IMG/VR virus record: IMGVR_UViG_3300045999_007835
Source of the DNA: an uncultured virus (IMG/VR IMGVR_UViG_3300045999_007835)
Taxonomy: Duplodnaviria > Heunggongvirae > Uroviricota > Caudoviricetes
Direction: 5' to 3' (one strand)
DNA length: 20,000 nt
The position numbers and the translations under genes are program-made. Of this stretch, positions 1 through 14,407 are shown one piece after another (within the stretch, counting starts at the first letter, position 1; each line of letters starts with the position of its first letter). A model generated the notes under the pieces. It made no database searches and was not told the DNA's origin. It worked only from the letters and a program-made list of their open reading frames with translations.

Positions 1-2618
1 TCAAGTGAACTTCTTCCCAATGCCGAATTAAACCTACCTGATGTATTGGCTGCACCGGATGCATCGCCAACAAACACATTAAACCCCGCAGTGGTAGCGT
101 ACCCAGCCGCACGGCCAATGAAGGTGTTGTACTCGCCGGATTGATTGCTATACCCCGCCTGATAACCAACTGCCGTGTTGTTGGAGGCGGTGGTGTTTTG
201 ACCTAGCGAGCCTGCGCCCAAAGCAGTGTTGTAACTGCCTGTGGTGTTAAAATTCAAAGCGGTGTAAGAACCACCAAGTCCACCAACTGCTACATTGGCT
301 GTACCAGTGGTGTTGCTATATGCGGCCGCATAACCAACAGCAGTGTTGTTAGAGGCGGTGGTGTTGAAGTAAAGGGCAAATGTCCCGATTGCTGTGTTGT
401 AGTCTGCCGCCGTCTGGCTCTTCAGTGCCTGATAGCCAAAAGCAGAGTTGTAGACGCCCCCGTTGTCTGTGTAAATGGCTTGGTAGCCCATAGCAGTGTT
501 ACTGCTGCCCGTGGACTTTGTGTACAGAGCCTGATAACCAACAGCAGTGTTGTTAGAGGCGGTGGTGGTGTTGGCAAGTGCGGACATACCCACGGATGTG
601 TTGTAACTACCCGTGGTTGTTTGATAACCGGCATTGTCACCAACTACCGTGTTGTAACTGCCCGTAGTATTGCTGTAAGCGGCTTGATAACCAAGAAATA
701 GATTGCGCGTTCCAGTGCTATTCGTATATCCCGCCTGATAGCCTACAGCGGTGTTGTTAGAGGCGGTGGTGTTGGAGAATAAAGCATCACCACCAAGCGC
801 AGTGTTGTACGCGCCAGTTGTCGTAAAACGCAAAGAGTTGACACCCACTGTGGTGTTGTAGGAACCCGTAGTAACCGCATAACCGGCACGATGCCCAACG
901 CCGACATTCTGTGTCGCGCCATTTGTGGAATACAGGGCCTGATACCCAAGTGCAGTTAGAACAGTGCCCGTAGAGTTCGTATAACCTGCCTGATAACCAA
1001 TAGCAGTAAGTTCAGTGCCTGTGGTGTTTGTGTACGCTGCTTGGTAACCAACAGCGGTGCCGCCAGAGGCGGTGGTGTTGGCGTATAACGACCACATACC
1101 AAGCGCGGTGTTGTAGCTGCCGGTAGTGTTTGCAATAAGCGAAGCAGTGCCGAATGCCGAGTTGTGCTCGCCTGTGGTGTTAGCGAGCAGTGCAACCTGA
1201 CCAACGCCTGTGTTGTACCCTCCGGTGGTGTTAACGTTGAGTGCCCGTTCGCCAACTGCCGTAAGCCCCGATGCTGTCGTAGATGAGGCAAGAGCGGCCC
1301 GTCCAACGGCCACGTTCGCAACGCCTGTAGTGTTAGCGAACATGGCAAGATAGCCAACAGCGGTATTGTCGGAGGCGGTGGTGCTTTGTCCTAATGCGCT
1401 GATGCCGATTGCGGTGTTATAACTTCCTGTTGAATTTTCTTGCAATGCGGCGTACACACCAGCACCACCTGATCCAAACGATGCATTGCGTGTTCCTGTG
1501 GTTGTGTTGCATTGCGAGTTACGACCAAATGAGGAGTTAAATTCTCCGGTCGTATTTAATCGCAATGAACTGTCACCAAAGGCGTCAAGAGTTCCGGTCG
1601 TATTACTGTACCCAGCCTGATAGCCAACAGCGGTATTGTTGGAGGCGGTGGTGTTGGAAAGGAGGGCTTGAGAGCCGATTGCCGTGTTATTCCCTCCGCT
1701 GGAGCCAGAAGCGCCGCTTTGCAACGCAGACCATCCGAGCGAGGTGTTGTTGGTTCCAGTTGTGGTGTAGTAACCCGCTTGGAAACCAACATGCGTGTTA
1801 TTTGCGCCCGTAGACGAATATCCGGCAGTCTGCCCAATAAACGTCCCATAAGCAGCATTTGTTGAGTAACCGGCTTGGTATCCAAGAGCAACCGTGCCGC
1901 CAGAGCCACTGGTGTACGAGTACAAAGACTGATATCCAACAGCGGTGTTGCTAGAGGCGGTGGTGTTGGAGTAGAGAGCCGCTTGCCCAATAGATGTATT
2001 GTTCGATCCAGTAGTCGTTGAATGCCCTGCCTGAGAACCAACTGCGGTGTTATAGAGACCTGTGGTGTTGTTTCTCGCTGCTAGTCTTCCAATTGCTGTT
2101 AACTCGTTTGCGGTTGTATTACTTAGCCCAGCCTCTGATCCGATAACGGTGTTTGCGACTCCTGTCGTATTAGCCGCCAAAGCACTCGCACCCACCGCAG
2201 TGTTGGTGGACACAGCACCGGCTCCACGGCCTACGGTGACTCCGTAGATAGATGCGTCTAACGAGGTTGTGAGCGTTCCGGCAATAGAGACATTTGTAGC
2301 AGTGTCGTAATAGACAGACCTGCCAGCAGGGTATGTACAGAAGACATCCTTAGTCCCGGCTGAGAAGCTGACAAGACTTCCACCGTTAGACGACGCTAGA
2401 ACCGTATCCCGGCTGAGCGTAGTACCCGACGCGGTATACGTACCAATCCCCACCTCCCACTCGTTCACTCCCGGCAGGTTGATGGTGTAGTACGTGGTAT
2501 TCCCATTACCGATAGCTGAGAAGCTCTGAAAACCTGCTACCGCCCCGGCGAGGGTAATAGTCCCGGTCCCAAGAGTTGTGGTCGTTTCTCTAACACGGTC
2601 TTTGACGACTAACGGCAT
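1..2618 (-). CDS. Tail fibre / receptor-binding protein with 17-aa beta-solenoid repeats; partial, 3' end outside the window
   Basis: Manually translated because it is missing from the ORF track. ATG at 2618 follows AGGTG. The N-terminus MPLVVKDRVRETTTTLGTGTITLAGAVAGFQSF...EWEVGIGTY is a typical phage fibre anchor. Dozens of NTTGSxNTAxGYQAL-type repeats follow, with no stop codon through position 1 (872 codons). Confidence 0.88.
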   Translation of the reverse strand, partial: MPLVVKDRVRETTTTLGTGTITLAGAVAGFQSFSAIGNGNTTYYTINLPGVNEWEVGIGTYTASGTTLSRDTVLASSNGGSLVSFSAGTKDVFCTYPAGRSVYYDTATNVSIAGTLTTSLDASIYGVTVGRGAGAVSTNTAVGASALAANTTGVANTVIGSEAGLSNTTANELTAIGRLAARNNTTGLYNTAVGSQAGHSTTTGSNNTSIGQAALYSNTTASSNTAVGYQSLYSYTSGSGGTVALGYQAGYSTNAAYGTFIGQTAGYSSTGANNTHVGFQAGYYTTTGTNNTSLGWSALQSGASGSSGGNNTAIGSQALLSNTTASNNTAVGYQAGYSNTTGTLDAFGDSSLRLNTTGEFNSSFGRNSQCNTTTGTRNASFGSGGAGVYAALQENSTGSYNTAIGISALGQSTTASDNTAVGYLAMFANTTGVANVAVGRAALASSTTASGLTAVGERALNVNTTGGYNTGVGQVALLANTTGEHNSAFGTASLIANTTGSYNTALGMWSLYANTTASGGTAVGYQAAYTNTTGTELTAIGYQAGYTNSTGTVLTALGYQALYSTNGATQNVGVGHRAGYAVTTGSYNTTVGVNSLRFTTTGAYNTALGGDALFSNTTASNNTAVGYQAGYTNSTGTRNLFLGYQAAYSNTTGSYNTVVGDNAGYQTTTGSYNTSVGMSALANTTTASNNTAVGYQALYTKSTGSSNTAMGYQAIYTDNGGVYNSAFGYQALKSQTAADYNTAIGTFALYFNTTASNNTAVGYAAAYSNTTGTANVAVGGLGGSYTALNFNTTGSYNTALGAGSLGQNTTASNNTAVGYQAGYSNQSGEYNTFIGRAAGYATTAGFNVFVGDASGAANTSGRFNSALGRSSL
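160..1970 (-). repeat. Eight dispersed copies of a ~35-nt motif with invariant core CACCACCGCCTC inside the tail-fibre gene
   Basis: Plus-strand gaggcggtggtg starts at 184, 352, 556, 760, 1066, 1372, 1642 and 1954. Spacings are 168, 204, 204, 306, 306, 270 and 312 nt, all multiples of 3. Confidence 0.9.
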
Positions 2619-2625
2619 ACTTCAC

Positions 2626-3135
2626 CTATACGGTAGGAATGATTGTCCAGCCTGTTCCCGGGCTGACCGTAATCTGAATCCAATTTGCATTCTGAGTGTC
2701 ATCTACCGGTTCCCACAAGCCCCGGCGGGTAACCGCGTCAGAGCCGGTTGCAGACTCCGATACCGAAGCCAAGAACGTAACGGTCGTGGTCAAGGAATCA
2801 GCGGCGGTAGAAGACTCTGAGACGGAGACGACGAAGGTAACGGCAGTAGCAACCGAATCCGCGCCTGTCGCGGACTCAGAAATAAAGTTGGGGAAGGAGA
2901 CGAGTGAGGCAACGGAGTCGGCAACGGTGCTGGACTCCGATACGCTAGAGTTGATTTGGAAGGTAGAGGAAACAGTATCAGAACCTGTTGCAGACTCTGA
3001 GACCGACGACAGGAACGTAACAAGACTGCTGACGGAGTCAGCGCCTGTGGCGGACTCAGATATGACGGGGGAGTAAAACGTACCCCCAACCGTTGAGAAC
3101 GGGAGTTCTGCAAAAGACCCGGTTGAAAAGGCCAT
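2626..3135 (-). CDS. Ser/Thr-rich virion protein with six tandem 20-aa repeats
   Basis: 169-aa ORF with repeats of xx(V/I)SES(A/S)TxxD(S/T/A)(V/L); exact 60-nt period; lies among tail genes. Confidence 0.8.
   Translation of the reverse strand: MAFSTGSFAELPFSTVGGTFYSPVISESATGADSVSSLVTFLSSVSESATGSDTVSSTFQINSSVSESSTVADSVASLVSFPNFISESATGADSVATAVTFVVSVSESSTAADSLTTTVTFLASVSESATGSDAVTRRGLWEPVDDTQNANWIQITVSPGTGWTIIPTV
2725..3070 (-). repeat. Tandem 60-nt coding repeat, 6 copies
   Basis: Plus-strand gactc recurs at 2753, 2813, 2873, 2933, 2993 and 3053. Confidence 0.85.
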
Positions 3136-3855: not shown

Positions 3856-4272
3856 TCAATTGCTTGAACGGATCAAAGCCGTGGTAGCTGTATCACCCGG
3901 CATTGTGACCGTAAATGTGTTTATGCAGGTTTTGTCAGACCCGAAATCCAGTACCACGATTGACCGATTGGCTTTGCTGGCATTGTAGAGCAGCGCGCAC
4001 CGAGTGGTAAAGGCTGCCGGGACCCAGAGCACGTTGTTGAACGTCACCCATGCAGTGTAGCCACTGCTGTTAATTGTCACCCCGGTTACTACGTTTCCAC
4101 CTGCGCTGTACCCCGTGCCCGTAATCTCATTTTCCGTGGTGTAGACGGTCGTAGACGCATCCAAGTTGGCTTCCGCCGTATACAGCGCGAGCTTCAGCGT
4201 GTCCGTTAGCAGGTTGTGGATAGCCTCATACAACTCCGCCTTAAAGCTGGTGGTCTGGGTCTGGACGATCAT
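3856..4272 (-). CDS. Putative virion structural (tail) protein
   Basis: 138 aa; TSFKAEL...KLALYT...GTGYSAGG...VLDFGSDKT pattern common in aquatic phage tail modules; ATGA overlap with the upstream gene. Confidence 0.7.
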   Translation of the reverse strand: MIVQTQTTSFKAELYEAIHNLLTDTLKLALYTAEANLDASTTVYTTENEITGTGYSAGGNVVTGVTINSSGYTAWVTFNNVLWVPAAFTTRCALLYNASKANRSIVVLDFGSDKTCINTFTVTMPGDTATTALIRSSN

Positions 4273-5198
4273 TTGACCGGGTTCCTTACCTGCCCATCAC
4301 GATAAGCATCCATACGCTGCTTGCCGTCGCCAAGATTCTTGAGAAGCGCCAGTGATTGGCCGTAGAGCTGAGCGTACATATCCATCTGCTCTTTCTCGGC
4401 CTTCATGAACCGAGCAGCTTCAACAACCGTAGCGTTCAAAAGCGCTGAGTCAAAGTTCTCGCCTAGCCAAGTGACACCGCTTGCGTTGGTGACTGCAGAA
4501 ACGGAGATGCTAAAGCCGGAACCTGTCCCGCCGATGCTCGACGCATCGCAAGACAACGTATTCCCCACTGCGTAGAACACGCCGGGGTTTTGAATCGTGA
4601 CCGAGGTCACCGCACCGCCGGAAACAACAATCCGAGCTGTTGCACCAGAGCCAGAACCGCCCGTGAGAGCTACACCGTTATACGTCCCGTTGGTGTACAA
4701 CGAGCCCGCCGTGATGGCCCCCAGCGTATTCAACGCACCCTGAACGATAGACTCAGGGTAGTAGTAATAGTGCAGCTCAACGTAGTACGCCAGATCGGGC
4801 GTAGGGCCTACGATGAACGAGAGTTCCGTCTCCAGATCTGACCTTGGCCCGAAGATCGCGTAGTACTTGGGTACGCCCTTGGAGTTGGGCGGCGGGTACG
4901 CTTCGCGGATGAAGTTCACATCCTTGTTGATCAAGTACGAGTACGTACCGGTGTTGAGAACACCGTTGACAACCCCCGTGATTACGGCAAGAGAGTAGGT
5001 AGACAGGTAGTCCGTCGGCGCAGATAGATACTGATTATCAGTGGTCAACTGCCCATAGACGTTCTTGCGCAGATTGGCAATCTGCACAGAGTTGTAGATG
5101 ATCTGTTCGGCCTGACGGACGAACATCGCCATCTGAGCATCGGTGAAAGTGTTCTCAACGATGTTCGCAACATTGGTTGCCAACTCAGTGTATTGCAT
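4269..5198 (-). CDS. Putative head-tail adaptor / tail tubular protein with an internal Gly/Ser/Thr-rich domain
   Basis: 309 aa; helical N-terminus (FVRQAEQIIY), GVPKYYA and GPTPD...Y.VELHYYY motifs, WLGENF and a helical C-terminus. Confidence 0.65.
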   Translation of the reverse strand: MQYTELATNVANIVENTFTDAQMAMFVRQAEQIIYNSVQIANLRKNVYGQLTTDNQYLSAPTDYLSTYSLAVITGVVNGVLNTGTYSYLINKDVNFIREAYPPPNSKGVPKYYAIFGPRSDLETELSFIVGPTPDLAYYVELHYYYYPESIVQGALNTLGAITAGSLYTNGTYNGVALTGGSGSGATARIVVSGGAVTSVTIQNPGVFYAVGNTLSCDASSIGGTGSGFSISVSAVTNASGVTWLGENFDSALLNATVVEAARFMKAEKEQMDMYAQLYGQSLALLKNLGDGKQRMDAYRDGQVRNPVK

Positions 5199-5540: not shown

Positions 5541-5930
5541 CTAAGTCGTCACTATCGTTACTGTACCAACAGACGTGACTGCCACCAAGTAATTCGGCGT
5601 CAGCCCCGCATCATTTGCACTTGCTCCGCCTACCGGATTCCAGCCCCACTGAATCTCGCGTGAGCCGCCAGTCAGGTTGCCGTCAGCATTCACGCCGGCG
5701 GTTACGTACGTTGTGTCCCTGCGAGGATTCCGCAAAGCTTGCGGGTCGTCTACAGGATACATACCCAATTGCAACTGGGGGTGATCTGGGTCCCAGCACT
5801 CCCGGCACACTAACACATTGACAGGCTTGGTCTTGACAATCAGTGTGCGAAGGTCGCGCAGGCGGAAGCGCAGGCCACAGCGATCACAGATCGCAATAGC
5901 CTTCTTGCCGCTGGCAAACCGATTACCCAC
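5541..5930 (-). CDS. Phage protein with a CxxC...CxxC zinc-ribbon-like N-terminus
   Basis: 129 aa; CDRC and CREC pairs followed by DPQALRNPR; the GTG start overlaps the upstream TAG by one base. Confidence 0.75.
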   Translation of the reverse strand: MGNRFASGKKAIAICDRCGLRFRLRDLRTLIVKTKPVNVLVCRECWDPDHPQLQLGMYPVDDPQALRNPRRDTTYVTAGVNADGNLTGGSREIQWGWNPVGGASANDAGLTPNYLVAVTSVGTVTIVTT

Positions 5931-6859
5931 TACATCACTCCACCGATGAAGGCCCGGCGCGGCACGAGACGAACTGCAGCTTTCTCACGGTCTTCACCTG
6001 CCGCCAAGTTGAACTGCTCGTCGTACGCCGCTTTCAGCATGTCGAGCCGAGGCATCAGCTCCGGCACTTTCATCGCGATGTAGTACGCAAGCCCCGCCAC
6101 CACGCACGGCAGGAATCGGAAGTTCATGTCTGCAGTTTCAATGCCGTTGCCGGCGTCCTGCACGCGCCTCATGCGCCAGTACACGAACTGATAAGTCTGC
6201 GAGTTGTCCGGCGTGGGCCACACTGTGATGGCCGGCAGGTTGGGGTTGTAGACCGTAGCCCCCGAGGAATGCCCCGCTGCAGTCGTTCCGTTCTGTCCAC
6301 GCACCACACCGCCTAGACTATTACCGTCCAGCCAGCCATAGTAGATGTCTTCGGACCCGAGACGGATGAAACCGGCAGAGGCAAGGTTTGCGGTTGAGGA
6401 GAGTGTGATAGTGGTTGTGGAACTGGTGATGGTCCCGTTGAGCGTAGCGCCCGTGGGCGATACCTGCCCTGACAACCGTTGCACCCAGACCTGAATGGGA
6501 CGCCCCGGAGCTAGCTTGTTCGGGATTGTAGCGTAGGTGGAGACCGAGATGCGGGTGATGTTCAGGTCTGCCTGCGTTGAGGCAGCGTTTTGCCCCGTGC
6601 GAATGACGTGATCGAGCAGGTCGATGGTATCAAGGGGGAGAGCATAGGTGTTCAGCCCGGGCGTCAGGGTCAGCGTACCCTGCTCGATTGTCCACATGTT
6701 GATGCCACGATTTTGCCACTCAATGGTCATCAAGTTCATAGACCGGCGAGCAGTTCGCAGGTCATAGCCAGAACGCATCTCGCGCCCAGCCCGCTCCCAC
6801 GCCTCTTCAGCGATGTCTGTGAACTCTAAGTTGAACGCCGTGGTGCCGGTAGTGGTCAT
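5930..6859 (-). CDS. Putative head completion / adaptor protein with an inserted beta-rich domain
   Basis: 309 aa; EEAWERAG...ARRSMNLM..EWQNRGIN.W, GRP.Q and WPTPD motifs; helical C-terminus LKAAYDEQF.LA..EDRE. Confidence 0.65.
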   Translation of the reverse strand: MTTTGTTAFNLEFTDIAEEAWERAGREMRSGYDLRTARRSMNLMTIEWQNRGINMWTIEQGTLTLTPGLNTYALPLDTIDLLDHVIRTGQNAASTQADLNITRISVSTYATIPNKLAPGRPIQVWVQRLSGQVSPTGATLNGTITSSTTTITLSSTANLASAGFIRLGSEDIYYGWLDGNSLGGVVRGQNGTTAAGHSSGATVYNPNLPAITVWPTPDNSQTYQFVYWRMRRVQDAGNGIETADMNFRFLPCVVAGLAYYIAMKVPELMPRLDMLKAAYDEQFNLAAGEDREKAAVRLVPRRAFIGGVM

Positions 6860-9701: not shown

Positions 9702-9730
9702 TTTGTATCAGGTTGTGGGGAGGGTGTCAA
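9702..9730 (-). promoter_or_regulatory. Sigma70-type promoter for the structured RNA and downstream late genes
   Basis: TTGACA (9730-9725), 17-nt spacer, TACAAA (9707-9702) with a TGn extension; overlaps the 3' end of the endonuclease gene. Confidence 0.6.
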
Positions 9731-10457
9731 CATACTTGAAGCTCCACCCCATGCGCCGCCCCTTAGACAAAGGCTTTCCGGACTTCAACGCGCGGTTCAA
9801 CGTAGGCATCAACAGCTCAAGCGACTGCAGGGTCTCAGTCAGACTCCCATAGCGATGCACAACGCCCTGCGGGTCCGTAGCATCGATCTGCTTGCGCATC
9901 TTGAATTTGGCCTCTTCCGTGTGCGTACGGCCCGTCCAGTGGCTGTAATGCCCCGCCGCTGCAGCCGCCATGATCTTTGCGCGCCCTGCGTCTGAAATTT
10001 TGCGCCCCGGGCCTTTGGGTTTGCCACGCTGCGTGTTGCCAATTTTGCCCCGTACTTCTTCGGAAAGAGTTGTGCCGTACCGGTAGTGGTTGGCGCCAGC
10101 GTGCTTACCTTTGCGGCTCGTGCTGATTGCTTTTTTGGTCGCAGCACTTAGTACCTGACCGAGCCGGGGCGCAAACGCGTCTACGTTGATGTTGTAGCAA
10201 TCAGGCTGACCAACACATTTCATCAAGTACGTGTTCTCGATATCAAACGTGTGCCGACCCTCCGGCACCGTCTCTAAGATCTCAAATACAAACATTTCCG
10301 CACCGTACTTGTTCCACGCCGCCTGAAGGCGTGGGTTCTTGTGTTCGTTACGCTTCAATGCGTAAGTGTGTTGCCAACGTCGCCGCTCAAACGACTCGGC
10401 ACTGCCGACGTAATAATGATTATTTGCCATGTTGGTGATGCGATAGATGACTGCCAT
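9708..10457 (-). CDS. Free-standing GIY-YIG homing endonuclease with NUMOD3-like repeats
   Basis: Probable start ATG 10457 after GGAGG, giving 249 aa. VIYRITN...YYVGS...RR..QH and HKN..LQ.AWNKYG...F.FEILE, with conserved E and YN; NUMOD3-like GTTLSEEVRGKI and GRTHTEEAKFKM; HTH-like C-terminus. Confidence 0.88.
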   Translation of the reverse strand: MAVIYRITNMANNHYYVGSAESFERRRWQHTYALKRNEHKNPRLQAAWNKYGAEMFVFEILETVPEGRHTFDIENTYLMKCVGQPDCYNINVDAFAPRLGQVLSAATKKAISTSRKGKHAGANHYRYGTTLSEEVRGKIGNTQRGKPKGPGRKISDAGRAKIMAAAAAGHYSHWTGRTHTEEAKFKMRKQIDATDPQGVVHRYGSLTETLQSLELLMPTLNRALKSGKPLSKGRRMGWSFKYVDTLPTT

Positions 10458-10484
10458 TGCGACCTCCGTGGAGTAATGATCGGT

Positions 10485-10513
10485 ATTATGCCCCGGAAAG
10501 TTAAATAGGTCAA
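10485..10513 (-). promoter_or_regulatory. Sigma70-type promoter of the endonuclease gene
   Basis: TTGACC (10513-10508), 17-nt spacer, CATAAT (10490-10485), about 28 nt upstream of the ATG. Confidence 0.65.
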
Positions 10514-10542
10514 TTCGCGAGCTTTGTACCGCTAATAGGCAC

Positions 10543-10565
10543 AAAAAAGCCCTCCGAAGAGGGCT
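10543..10565 (-). terminator. Rho-independent terminator after the major capsid gene
   Basis: GCCCTC-TTCG-GAGGGC followed by TTTTTT on the minus strand; cUUCGg tetraloop. Confidence 0.88.
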
Positions 10566-10593
10566 CCAAACACTCGTAAGTGCTTGATTTTGC

Positions 10594-11505
10594 TTAGCTT
10601 GCGCCGGGCGAACCGTAGGCGCCGAGCGGGTCCGAGACGCCGAACGAATAGCGTTCGCGGGCCTTGTACCTAGCGTTCCCAGTGTCGAAGTCCGCATCCA
10701 TACCCGTCTGCATCGGGGTACGAACGAAGTGCTTCAGACCGTTGGGCACGTCGGTCAAAAGGAACCAAGCGTTGGTGTCGGTCAGGTAGTGGTTGATCGT
10801 GAACCCTTCAGGAATCGAGTTCATCGACTTCAGCGCGTTGACGTCGTTGTCAGCGGTCGCCACACGGAGTTCAGTCTCCAAGAGGCGGGTTGCAACGAAC
10901 TGCAACGCTGGAGGAACCACCAGCTTACGCGGCTTGGCGGCGATCAGCAGCCCACGCTCATCGGTCCAGCCAGCGATCTGGATAACGGCGGCTTCCAAAG
11001 AAGTCTCGTTCAGATCGGCAGCGGTTGACGGGCGGTTGCTGTTGGTGCCACCAGAGACCAGCGGATGAGCGGTCGAGAACAGGCTAACGCCGTCGCCGTA
11101 GGTCACGGCGGAGCTAAAGCCTTGGTTCAGGATCGCAGCCGCTTTGACCTGCTTGGTATACGCCATCGCGCGAGCAAGCGCTTTGGTGTACCGCGACGAC
11201 AGACTGTCGTACAGGTTGTCTTCCATCGCCTCTTCGGTGATGGAGAAGCCCATAGCAATCGTCTCGTGGTTGTACCGAGCAGTCCAAGCCTCTTGCGCGT
11301 TGTCGTACGCCAGAGCAGAGCCCTCGTTCTTGACCGGAGCAGCGCTGAAGCCGGAGAGCTTGGTCTCCTCTTCAAACGAACGCTCGGAGGTCTCGGTCTC
11401 GAAGAGCTCTTTGTGTTCTTCGCCGTACCGTTTGTACTCCAGACCGAACAGTGCGTTAAGCCCGGGCAGGAGTTCTTTAAGTAGCTGTGCGCGTGAAATA
11501 GCCAT
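10594..11505 (-). CDS. Major capsid protein, Mu gpT-like with HK97 fold
   Basis: 303 aa; MAISRAQL.KEL.PGLNALFG, KxEG, GFSITEEA.ED, GDGVSLFSTAHP, P.KLVVPP and RERYSFG..DP...YGS motifs; AAGGAG RBS; strong codon bias; followed by a terminator. Confidence 0.88.
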   Translation of the reverse strand: MAISRAQLLKELLPGLNALFGLEYKRYGEEHKELFETETSERSFEEETKLSGFSAAPVKNEGSALAYDNAQEAWTARYNHETIAMGFSITEEAMEDNLYDSLSSRYTKALARAMAYTKQVKAAAILNQGFSSAVTYGDGVSLFSTAHPLVSGGTNSNRPSTAADLNETSLEAAVIQIAGWTDERGLLIAAKPRKLVVPPALQFVATRLLETELRVATADNDVNALKSMNSIPEGFTINHYLTDTNAWFLLTDVPNGLKHFVRTPMQTGMDADFDTGNARYKARERYSFGVSDPLGAYGSPGAS

Positions 11506-13851: not shown

Positions 13852-14217
13852 TTAGGCTCGCGTTACGCCGCGCGGGTCCGGCACAACCGCTTCAATCGAG
13901 TCATCGTTTAGCAGCCGATACTCTTGGTTGTTCACCTTGAAACGTGTGCCCGAGTTGGGGCGGAACATCACAAAGTCACCGACCTTGCACCACGGACCCG
14001 TGGGGAAGCGATCTTTGTCGGAATACGCTTGGTCCCCCATGTCGATCACGGCACCCATCATGGAGAGAACTACTTCTGCATGTCGGGTTTGCTCTGCCTT
14101 CATGAGCCCAGAGTCGTATGCTTCTTCTACCTTGGGTAGAGCAATGAGGATTCGGTAACCTACCGGTTTGGGAAGTTGAGCCTCAAATTCCTCATCAGTT
14201 AGCTGATGATCAGTCAT
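13852..14217 (-). CDS. groES: GroES-like co-chaperonin
   Basis: Likely start ATG 14217, giving 121 aa. PKPVGYRILI, a mobile-loop-like SGL segment, KVGDFVMF..NSG and YRLLNDDSIEAVV fit the Cpn10 pattern. Confidence 0.8.
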   Translation of the reverse strand: MTDHQLTDEEFEAQLPKPVGYRILIALPKVEEAYDSGLMKAEQTRHAEVVLSMMGAVIDMGDQAYSDKDRFPTGPWCKVGDFVMFRPNSGTRFKVNNQEYRLLNDDSIEAVVPDPRGVTRA

Positions 14218-14407
14218 CGTCTTGTTCCATATATTGCTGCGCAAGGTCAAGGATTTCACGCTTTGCGGTCTCTAGACCTCGAATCAAGCCGCAAAGATCT
14301 CTGTACTCCGCGTAGTCTTTAGCTGCGCCAGAGGCCAATGAATCTGCAACCGCCGCAATGTGGGCGGTGATCTTTTCAACCAGCACGTCATAGACGGTCT
14401 TAGCCAT
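14210..14407 (-). CDS. Small conserved helical phage protein
   Basis: 65 aa; L..G.AKDYAEYR...G.IRGL motif; starts directly after the portal stop codon. Confidence 0.75.
   Translation of the reverse strand: MAKTVYDVLVEKITAHIAAVADSLASGAAKDYAEYRDLCGLIRGLETAKREILDLAQQYMEQDDD

Follow-up and report, generated by a model that had tools for sequence, protein, structure and literature searches.

The fibre gene and its anchors

The window analysed here, a stretch of 20,000 nucleotides from the uncultured virus IMGVR_UViG_3300045999_007835 (Caudoviricetes), corresponds to positions 46335-66334 of a viral contig (C1) of 66,334 bp, which CheckV rates at a completeness of 100 and in which end repeats are absent; lake water was the source of all 24 runs listed with a match to a stretch of the window. 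At the left edge of the window lies the 5′ part of a minus-strand open reading frame (ORF) of 1,257 amino acids (aa; C1 48952-45179), that extends beyond this edge and codes for a candidate receptor-binding virion fibre or spike, as judged from PHROG matches. Its 17-aa repeats are interrupted by a recurring DNA segment, termed here the anchor, which divides the array into cassettes of 3-7 repeats each. To judge from the compared sequences, the anchor is spelled almost alike in hundreds of related aquatic virus genes, and the same comparison supports the view that anchors are places of cassette exchange. The gene is ordered as N-terminal domain, left linker, cassette array, right linker and C-terminal domain; the last two, together with anchor 9, are located outside the window. 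A previous reading of this DNA, made from the sequence only, had assigned the gene to 160..1970; the repeats and anchors were placed correctly, and it was the extent of the gene that had to be revised. The features within the window are as follows.

1..2618, minus strand: fibre/spike gene, 5′ part, with 17-aa repeats (ORF map, PHROG and predicted fold)
2250..2618, minus strand: N-terminal domain upstream of the repeats, which probably serves virion attachment; of 577 genes, at most 1 matches its DNA at any position
2162..2249, minus strand: left boundary linker GVTVGRGAGAVSTNTAVGASALAANTTG, conserved as DNA, with matches in up to 120 of 577 genes
1705..1970, minus strand: cassette 1, which matches a segment of an unrelated phage (L002) over 266 nt with 98.5% identity
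1923..1967, minus strand: anchor 1 (12-mer 1954-1965), left end of the segment common with L002
1611..1655, minus strand: anchor 2 (12-mer 1642-1653)
1341..1385, minus strand: anchor 3 (12-mer 1372-1383)
1269..1280, minus strand: TTAS peptide used as a control, encoded by ordinary codons and lying outside the anchors
1035..1079, minus strand: anchor 4 (12-mer 1066-1077)
729..773, minus strand: anchor 5 (12-mer 760-771)
525..569, minus strand: anchor 6 (12-mer 556-567)
313..548, minus strand: cassette 6, which matches L797 over 236 nt with 89% identity
321..365, minus strand: anchor 7 (12-mer 352-363)
153..197, minus strand: anchor 8 (12-mer 184-195)

The eight identical 12-mers on which the sequence-only reading was built were recovered by exact matching: CACCACCGCCTC is present in eight minus-strand copies at the positions given above, all of them direct repeats within one ORF, while 0.14 copies are expected by chance with one mismatch allowed (200 shuffles, largest count 2). 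The rest of the genome, where further copies had been proposed to be sought, holds no other exact copy in the 66,334-bp contig, and four matches have one mismatch. The spacing of 168-312 nt, in frame, and the three fourfold-degenerate third positions in ACC ACC GCC came out on recheck as first described, and so did the TTAS peptide at 1269-1280, which is encoded by ACG ACA GCA TCG. The ninth anchor, just beyond the window, reads AAC ACC ACG GCC AAT and does not contain the exact 12-mer. The 45-nt anchors of the gene are on average 80% identical, compared with 49% (maximum 71%) for the 26 non-anchor units. Mean identity of their flanks is 53% for the 51 nt upstream and 41% for the 51 nt from +60, hence duplication of whole units does not account for the identity of the anchors; this explanation was rejected also because no cassette pairs occur within any one gene.

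Conservation of the anchor DNA across the family

The 12-mer, regarded earlier as an invariant element, is only the local spelling, in this gene, of a family-wide anchor of about 45 nt, NTTASNNTAVGYQAG, in which the part fixed across the family is AAC ACC AC(C/A) GC(C/A) ... TAT. Related loci were collected by protein-based homologue scans (78 and 80 loci, the best 80 matches having been kept out of 92 and 146, respectively) and by five DNA-pattern scans for the anchor, each of which returned at least 125-131 stretches; the long anchor pattern gave six matches in 185,579 genomes, all in contigs of metagenome-assembled genomes. Since loci selected by a DNA pattern would make a codon test circular, this test was restricted to 82 protein-selected non-redundant genes, of which 71 contain the anchor peptide and 11 lack it.

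In the strict anchors (120 in 59 genes) the AAC codon is used with a frequency of 0.98 and the first ACC with 0.95, as compared to 0.53 and 0.27 in 198 NTTG units. With a looser definition of the anchor, the core AACACCACM is found in 172 of 194 anchors, 41 of 106 other NTTA units and 50 of 579 NTTG units, which upholds the earlier claim that the conservation is not forced by the protein. Even in genes whose G+C content at third codon positions is below 0.25, the core is kept by 22 of 32 anchors and by 3 of 99 NTTG units. Codon bias was thus ruled out as the cause of anchor identity by the NTTG and background controls, AT-rich genes included. Third positions outside the anchor core follow genome composition, and each gene tends to retain a spelling of its own. 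In a set made up mostly of pattern-selected genes, the share of identical synonymous codons was 0.72 within and 0.59 between genes for anchors, and 0.41 and 0.38, respectively, for control units. Cultured phages are also represented: the core is present in two of three NTTA units of the Roseobacter phage CRP-7 and in two of four of the Roseobacter phage CRP-1, the Pelagibacter phages HTVC111P and HTVC112P together with the Methylophilales phage Venkman form the same repeats with the core in 0 of 10 NTTA units, and in CRP-831 the linkers are present and the anchor is absent.

Exchange breakpoints at anchors

Homologues were aligned for breakpoints, a check that the sequence-only reading had proposed. 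From 792 sequences 740 repeat ORFs and finally 566 genes were obtained, between which 251 shared blocks (at least 120 nt, at least 92% identity) were detected; after exclusion of ends that lay beyond the repeat array or less than 60 nt from an edge of the sequence, 116 ends remained, representing 106 events. An end was assigned to an anchor when it fell within -12..+54 from the anchor start, and the null counts a match in either gene. Anchors were the site of 73 of the 106 ends, as against 38.1 expected (left ends 34/47 with 16.5 expected, right ends 39/59 with 21.6 expected), and the corresponding numbers were 48/58 for sharp junctions (20.1 expected) and 39/60 when only long genes were used (20.5 expected); for the total, the sharp junctions and the long genes alike, none of 20,000 draws reached the observed number. 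Mosaics simulated with random in-register crossovers were passed through near-identical BLAST settings, so that extension of alignments through anchors is included, and they placed 25% of 598 ends inside the anchor zone; 26 of 47 observed left ends lie at -6..+3, compared with 6% of 294 in these mosaics.

Among the 33 blocks bounded on both sides, 17 span a single cassette between two anchors, one such block being a duplicate, and some shared cassettes occupy different ordinal positions, e.g., 1 of 7 in one gene and 4 of 6 in the other. The partners formed 55 pairs, 24 of them with enough flank, and in 21 of the 24 less than 10% of the flank was common at 90% identity or above. The 678 cassettes sampled fell into 642 clusters, none of which had two members from one gene, which indicates exchange between phages and not duplication within a gene. 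In the gene under study the likeness of cassette 1 to L002, whose N-terminal domain and neighbours are unlike those found here, begins 3 nt before anchor 1, and the likeness of cassette 6 to L797 stops at +52 of anchor 7, where L797 continues with another cassette, its other end being a contig edge. The isolate CRP-1 and the locus L537 have one cassette in common (89.7% over 291 nt, anchor to anchor); from isolate to isolate, only short pieces of 72-89% mean identity were found among the matches listed. Two further genes (L345 1483-1642 and L629 469) are identical except for a 158-nt indel, one end of which is an anchor start.

The comparison of sequences bears out the conservation of the anchor DNA, the boundaries at anchors, the transfer between unrelated phages and the differing ordinal positions of cassettes. 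The proposal that anchors are crossover sites was, as it appears, correct with respect to cassette exchange at these places; the site-specific recombinase that it invoked was not found in the CheckV-complete contig, and the crossovers are spread over about -15..+44.

Boundary linkers and terminal domains

The cassette array is bordered by two linkers, neither of which was picked by a DNA pattern. The codons of the left linker are fixed in 66 copies of a freshwater form, a marine form is present in 51 copies, and a depth peak over this linker was observed in 3 of 4 lake runs. The right linker (GNQGGLDIRT...IVLSDGDGNP, C1 ~45880-45990, minus strand) was found in 102 copies; between Roseobacter isolates and many metagenomic loci its DNA is 83-95% identical over about 95 nt, and in AT-rich genes it keeps G/C-ending codons, GGC being used with a frequency of 1.00 compared with 0.20 in the background. 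In lake as well as in marine phages, the synonymous sites of both linkers are fixed, and the linker sequences are unlike that of the anchor. The parts beyond them are diverse: 87 clusters were obtained among 172 N-terminal sequences and 64 among 136 C-terminal ones, of which 76 contain an S74-like motif. The fact that three unlike sequences, the anchor and two linkers, behave alike points to shared homology rather than to a recognised site.

Mechanism of exchange

We consider homology-driven in-frame exchange of cassettes between phages a probable explanation of these sequence patterns. Anchors and linkers would represent high-identity DNA common to otherwise divergent phages and, being such stretches, would be the places where homologous recombination crosses over, either between co-resident phages or with phage DNA left in the host, so that one or more whole cassettes would be swapped in frame and in repeat register. 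For recombination of the lambda Red type about 30 bp are required, and a divergence of about 17% is tolerated (PMC3945230). The reaction may be general or relaxed homologous recombination, carried out by host RecA or by the PD-(D/E)XK exonuclease together with a phage annealase not yet recognised; exchange presumably takes place in co-infection, and a swapped cassette may alter binding or fibre length. The fixed codons may have been selected for compatibility with the shared pool, or they may be a side effect of exchange that happens often; we regard the two as about equally probable.

Crossover positions, estimated by a change-point fit of 77 events, fell to 9% in -15..-4, 39% in -3..+11, 21% in +12..26 and 17% in +27..44. 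The left ends have a bimodal distribution, and the right ends are shifted to the 5′ side, with 3% in +27..+44, a pattern that would fit repeated turnover of the anchor middle and not one cut site. Searches of the complete contig for an integrase (PF00589, 0/1, with controls positive in 14/14), a resolvase (PF00239, 0/1, controls 12/14) and a reverse transcriptase (PF00078, 0/1) gave no match, and no tyrosine or serine recombinase was recognised among the ORFs, of which 19 lie inside the window and 40-41 beyond it, so the absence of a recombinase or reverse transcriptase noted before for the window extends to the remaining genome. The phage annealase offered as an alternative by the sequence-only reading fared no better, in that no known annealase family was detected in the contig. 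Between the helicase and primase genes lies a gene for a 294-aa protein (C1 17130-18011; L806), that is widespread in viruses and matches only unnamed viral clusters, with Pam3_Gp34 as the lead at 17% of members; it is a candidate ssDNA-binding or annealing protein by its position only.

Several observations speak against exchange by plain homology. It does not predict uneven conservation inside the anchor, where positions +2, +5 and +35 are nearly fixed and +23, +26 and +41 are loose, and no known annealase or Rad52-like family was found that would perform it. Away from anchors lie 33 of the 106 ends, and the likeness of cassette 1 to L002 fades 50 nt before anchor 2. The events are not fully independent phylogenetically, almost all partners are metagenomic assemblies, and most loci were retrieved by anchor DNA patterns, which enriches for anchor-bearing genes. 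For the phage itself no read-level variant was seen: the contigs of 4 of the 24 lake runs showed no cassette-number or deletion form, and among the joints listed the shorter side is at most 36 letters. Joints between anchors in these runs, with short sides and unknown middles, were taken as other phages.

It is unlikely, in our view, that exchange is started at the 5′ end of the anchor by a factor that reads the core AACACCAC(C/A)GC(C/A), be it a site-specific recombinase, a nickase, a Chi-like signal for RecBCD/AddAB or a preference of RecA for TGG-rich strands. Such initiation would agree with the resistance of the core to an AT bias that shows in the third positions next to it, with the largest crossover share falling in -3..+11 and the rarity of right ends beyond +27, and with the G/T-rich complementary strand of the anchor, as TGG repeats are preferred by RecA (PMC3763553). 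However, 61% of the estimated crossovers lie outside the core, the three enzyme families named above have no match in the contig, and the linkers are fixed equally strongly, yet have other sequences that are not C/A-only. Furthermore, AACACCACMGC is confined to the fibre gene within the genome (6 copies), unlike the genome-wide Chi, and RecA nucleation on TG-rich or Chi DNA is described as not enhanced (PMC3763553). There is only a small chance that unrelated marine and freshwater phages have a standard in-frame exchange format for their fibre genes in which the 9-12-nt core acts as a polar sequence-specific signal for an unrecognised factor, e.g., the 294-aa protein or a host nuclease-helicase; if true, this would amount to programmed, recombinase-free diversification from a library of hundreds of cassettes.

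Retention of the anchor for protein structure or for an RNA or ssDNA hairpin (attC-like or translational), with exchange being incidental, is very unlikely. The peptide does recur at a median spacing of 258 nt, imperfect hairpins fold in some anchor copies (z -0.7 to -3.4) and the mean folding energy is -5.6 kcal/mol, compared with -4.8 in recoded controls. Nevertheless, a role of the peptide cannot fix synonymous bases, the same repeat is formed in HTVC111P, HTVC112P and Venkman with no core, and column-permuted anchors fold equally well (-5.45 kcal/mol). No compensatory pairs were seen in 811 anchors (at 8-41, CT 241 and AG 165 as against CG 144 and AT 89), and the hairpin or attC-like site was rejected. 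Extremely improbable is an artefact in which assemblers joined co-occurring phages at the common anchor and thus created false mosaics. Anchors are indeed common to many phages per sample, depth peaks and contig breaks occur there, nearly all partners are metagenomic contigs, and anchors 5-9 of the gene are unbridged among the matches listed. On the other hand, among 100,000 random pairs of unrelated anchors, 0.7% have an exact run of at least 31 nt in common and 0.006% one of at least 55 nt, a single-cassette swap requires two joins, and partner segments differ by 0-8%. Moreover, the two versions of the L103/L667 junction were traced by hand to 2 and 5 different assembly ids, a contig piece bridges anchors 1-4 with 0 differences in run X4 (these anchors are bridged by pieces in X2 and X6 as well), the CRP-1 side of its cassette match is an isolate, and codon fixation is seen in the isolates CRP-1 and CRP-7 as well.

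Comparison with known systems

With Cin/Gin/Min fibre invertases, shufflons, integron cassettes and diversity-generating retroelements, the present gene has in common the logic of cassettes and a site that is repeated inside host-range genes or between them. In contrast to invertons and shufflons, there is here no linked tyrosine or serine recombinase, no fixed crossover point and no inverted silent cassettes; as opposed to integron attC sites, there is neither a covarying hairpin nor an integrase, and unlike in diversity-generating retroelements, no reverse transcriptase was found in the contig and cassettes are unique within genes.

Closest in kind are the T-even phages, in which the distal tail-fibre and adhesin genes gp37-gp38 recombine at conserved motifs (Tetart 1996, 1998, as cited in PMC3157838), that is, fibre genes are shuffled by means of conserved motifs. 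In gp38 five glycine-rich motifs stand at fixed places within one phage superfamily (PMC3157838), whereas here one anchor occurs 1-9 times in a β-solenoid, cassettes move, synonymous bases are fixed and the partners are unrelated lake and marine phages. In coliphage tailspikes, conserved DNA motifs of 44, 95 and 20 nt flank the receptor-binding domain; similarly to the left and right linkers they are short DNA stretches at domain borders across genera and were proposed as recombination hotspots, but they are 63-81% identical, flank one domain and showed no correlation with recombination events (PMC10408124), whereas the repeated internal anchor gives many cassettes and breakpoints map to it. 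The Rad52-like relaxed recombination of temperate coliphages likewise leaves mosaics bordered by short homology above background and exchanges gene fragments, with a known recombinase and with traces of homologous recombination at about 30% of mosaics (PMC3945230, where stf invertases are also mentioned); here, in contrast, a single stereotyped repeat accounts for 69% of ends, and the search revealed no family of the Rad52-like kind. YadA-head-like or MAT fibres and tailspike β-solenoids resemble the present gene as repetitive β fibres with chimeric tips and often an S74 chaperone, and the available part of PMC10769870 does not describe a joint at the DNA level. Variable fibre genes and 100-300-bp tail-gene variants are treated in PMC7468147 and PMC12379486, the accessible portions of which contain no such joint. 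The anchor motif and peptide were not found in the published literature, subscription journals and supplements being outside the search.

Fibre product and surrounding genome

The fibre gene matches PHROG families of virion structural proteins and tail spikes (E 5e-127 to 2e-94). A single-sequence AlphaFold2 model of 413 repeat residues from window 160-1400 is an all-β solenoid (pLDDT 74.7), that resembles β-helices, tailspikes and trimeric-adhesin heads (VIA Z 14-18) with no single clear best match: Z 15.9, rmsd 8.8 and 268 aligned for UspA1; Z 15.5, rmsd 8.6 and 259 for BpaC; Z 18.1, rmsd 4.4 and 395 for EtpA. Atlas neighbours of the protein (0.92-0.93) carry YadA-like names. The protein has no Pfam YadA_head and no Pfam S74 match, its sequence gave 0 matches in the PDB at E≤1, and Foldseek with the model gave none at E≤0.001. 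A second fibre gene (861 aa, C1 41827-44412, minus strand) combines related repeats with an S74 chaperone and is devoid of the anchor.

Genes for terminase, portal, major capsid and SU10-adaptor proteins are present in the window, and the contig outside it encodes PolA, helicase, primase, PD-(D/E)XK exonuclease, a resolvase-like nuclease and endolysin. Other observations are listed below.

window 2626-3135, minus strand: directly upstream of the fibre gene, a Ser/Thr-rich protein of 169 aa that contains a repeat of 20 aa (60 nt) and has no family match
window 4269-5198 and 5930-6859, minus strand: two 309-aa SU10-adaptor proteins, the Pfam match spanning only about half of each
window 9708-10697, minus strand: GIY-YIG and NUMOD3 endonuclease ORF that overlaps the end of the major capsid gene
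window 13852-14259, minus strand: Cpn10/GroES-like co-chaperonin of the phage, adjoining the portal gene
C1 3171-6089, plus strand: MoxR-like AAA ATPase, accompanied by a DUF2201 metallopeptidase/VWA partner
C1 32552-36592, minus strand: protein of 1,346 aa that contains a poly-Pro tract and long low-complexity stretches of Gly-Thr and GTQPGT

Implications

What is new here is the many-cassette array inside one repeat gene, and the probable mechanism resembles the known conserved-motif shuffling of T-even phages. The origin of phage mosaicism is debated between exchange at conserved linkers and random joining followed by selection (PMC3945230). Selection on the protein only would predict breakpoints at any 17-aa unit, and since they were found concentrated at the unit conserved as DNA, the anchor breakpoints bear on this debate. 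The sharing of anchors also explains why such genes break in short-read assemblies. The family provides a countable case in which silent codon positions are kept fixed at joints and fibre parts pass between unrelated genomes, and in which anchors and linkers would give otherwise unrelated viruses a common pool of parts for the rebuilding of their fibres.

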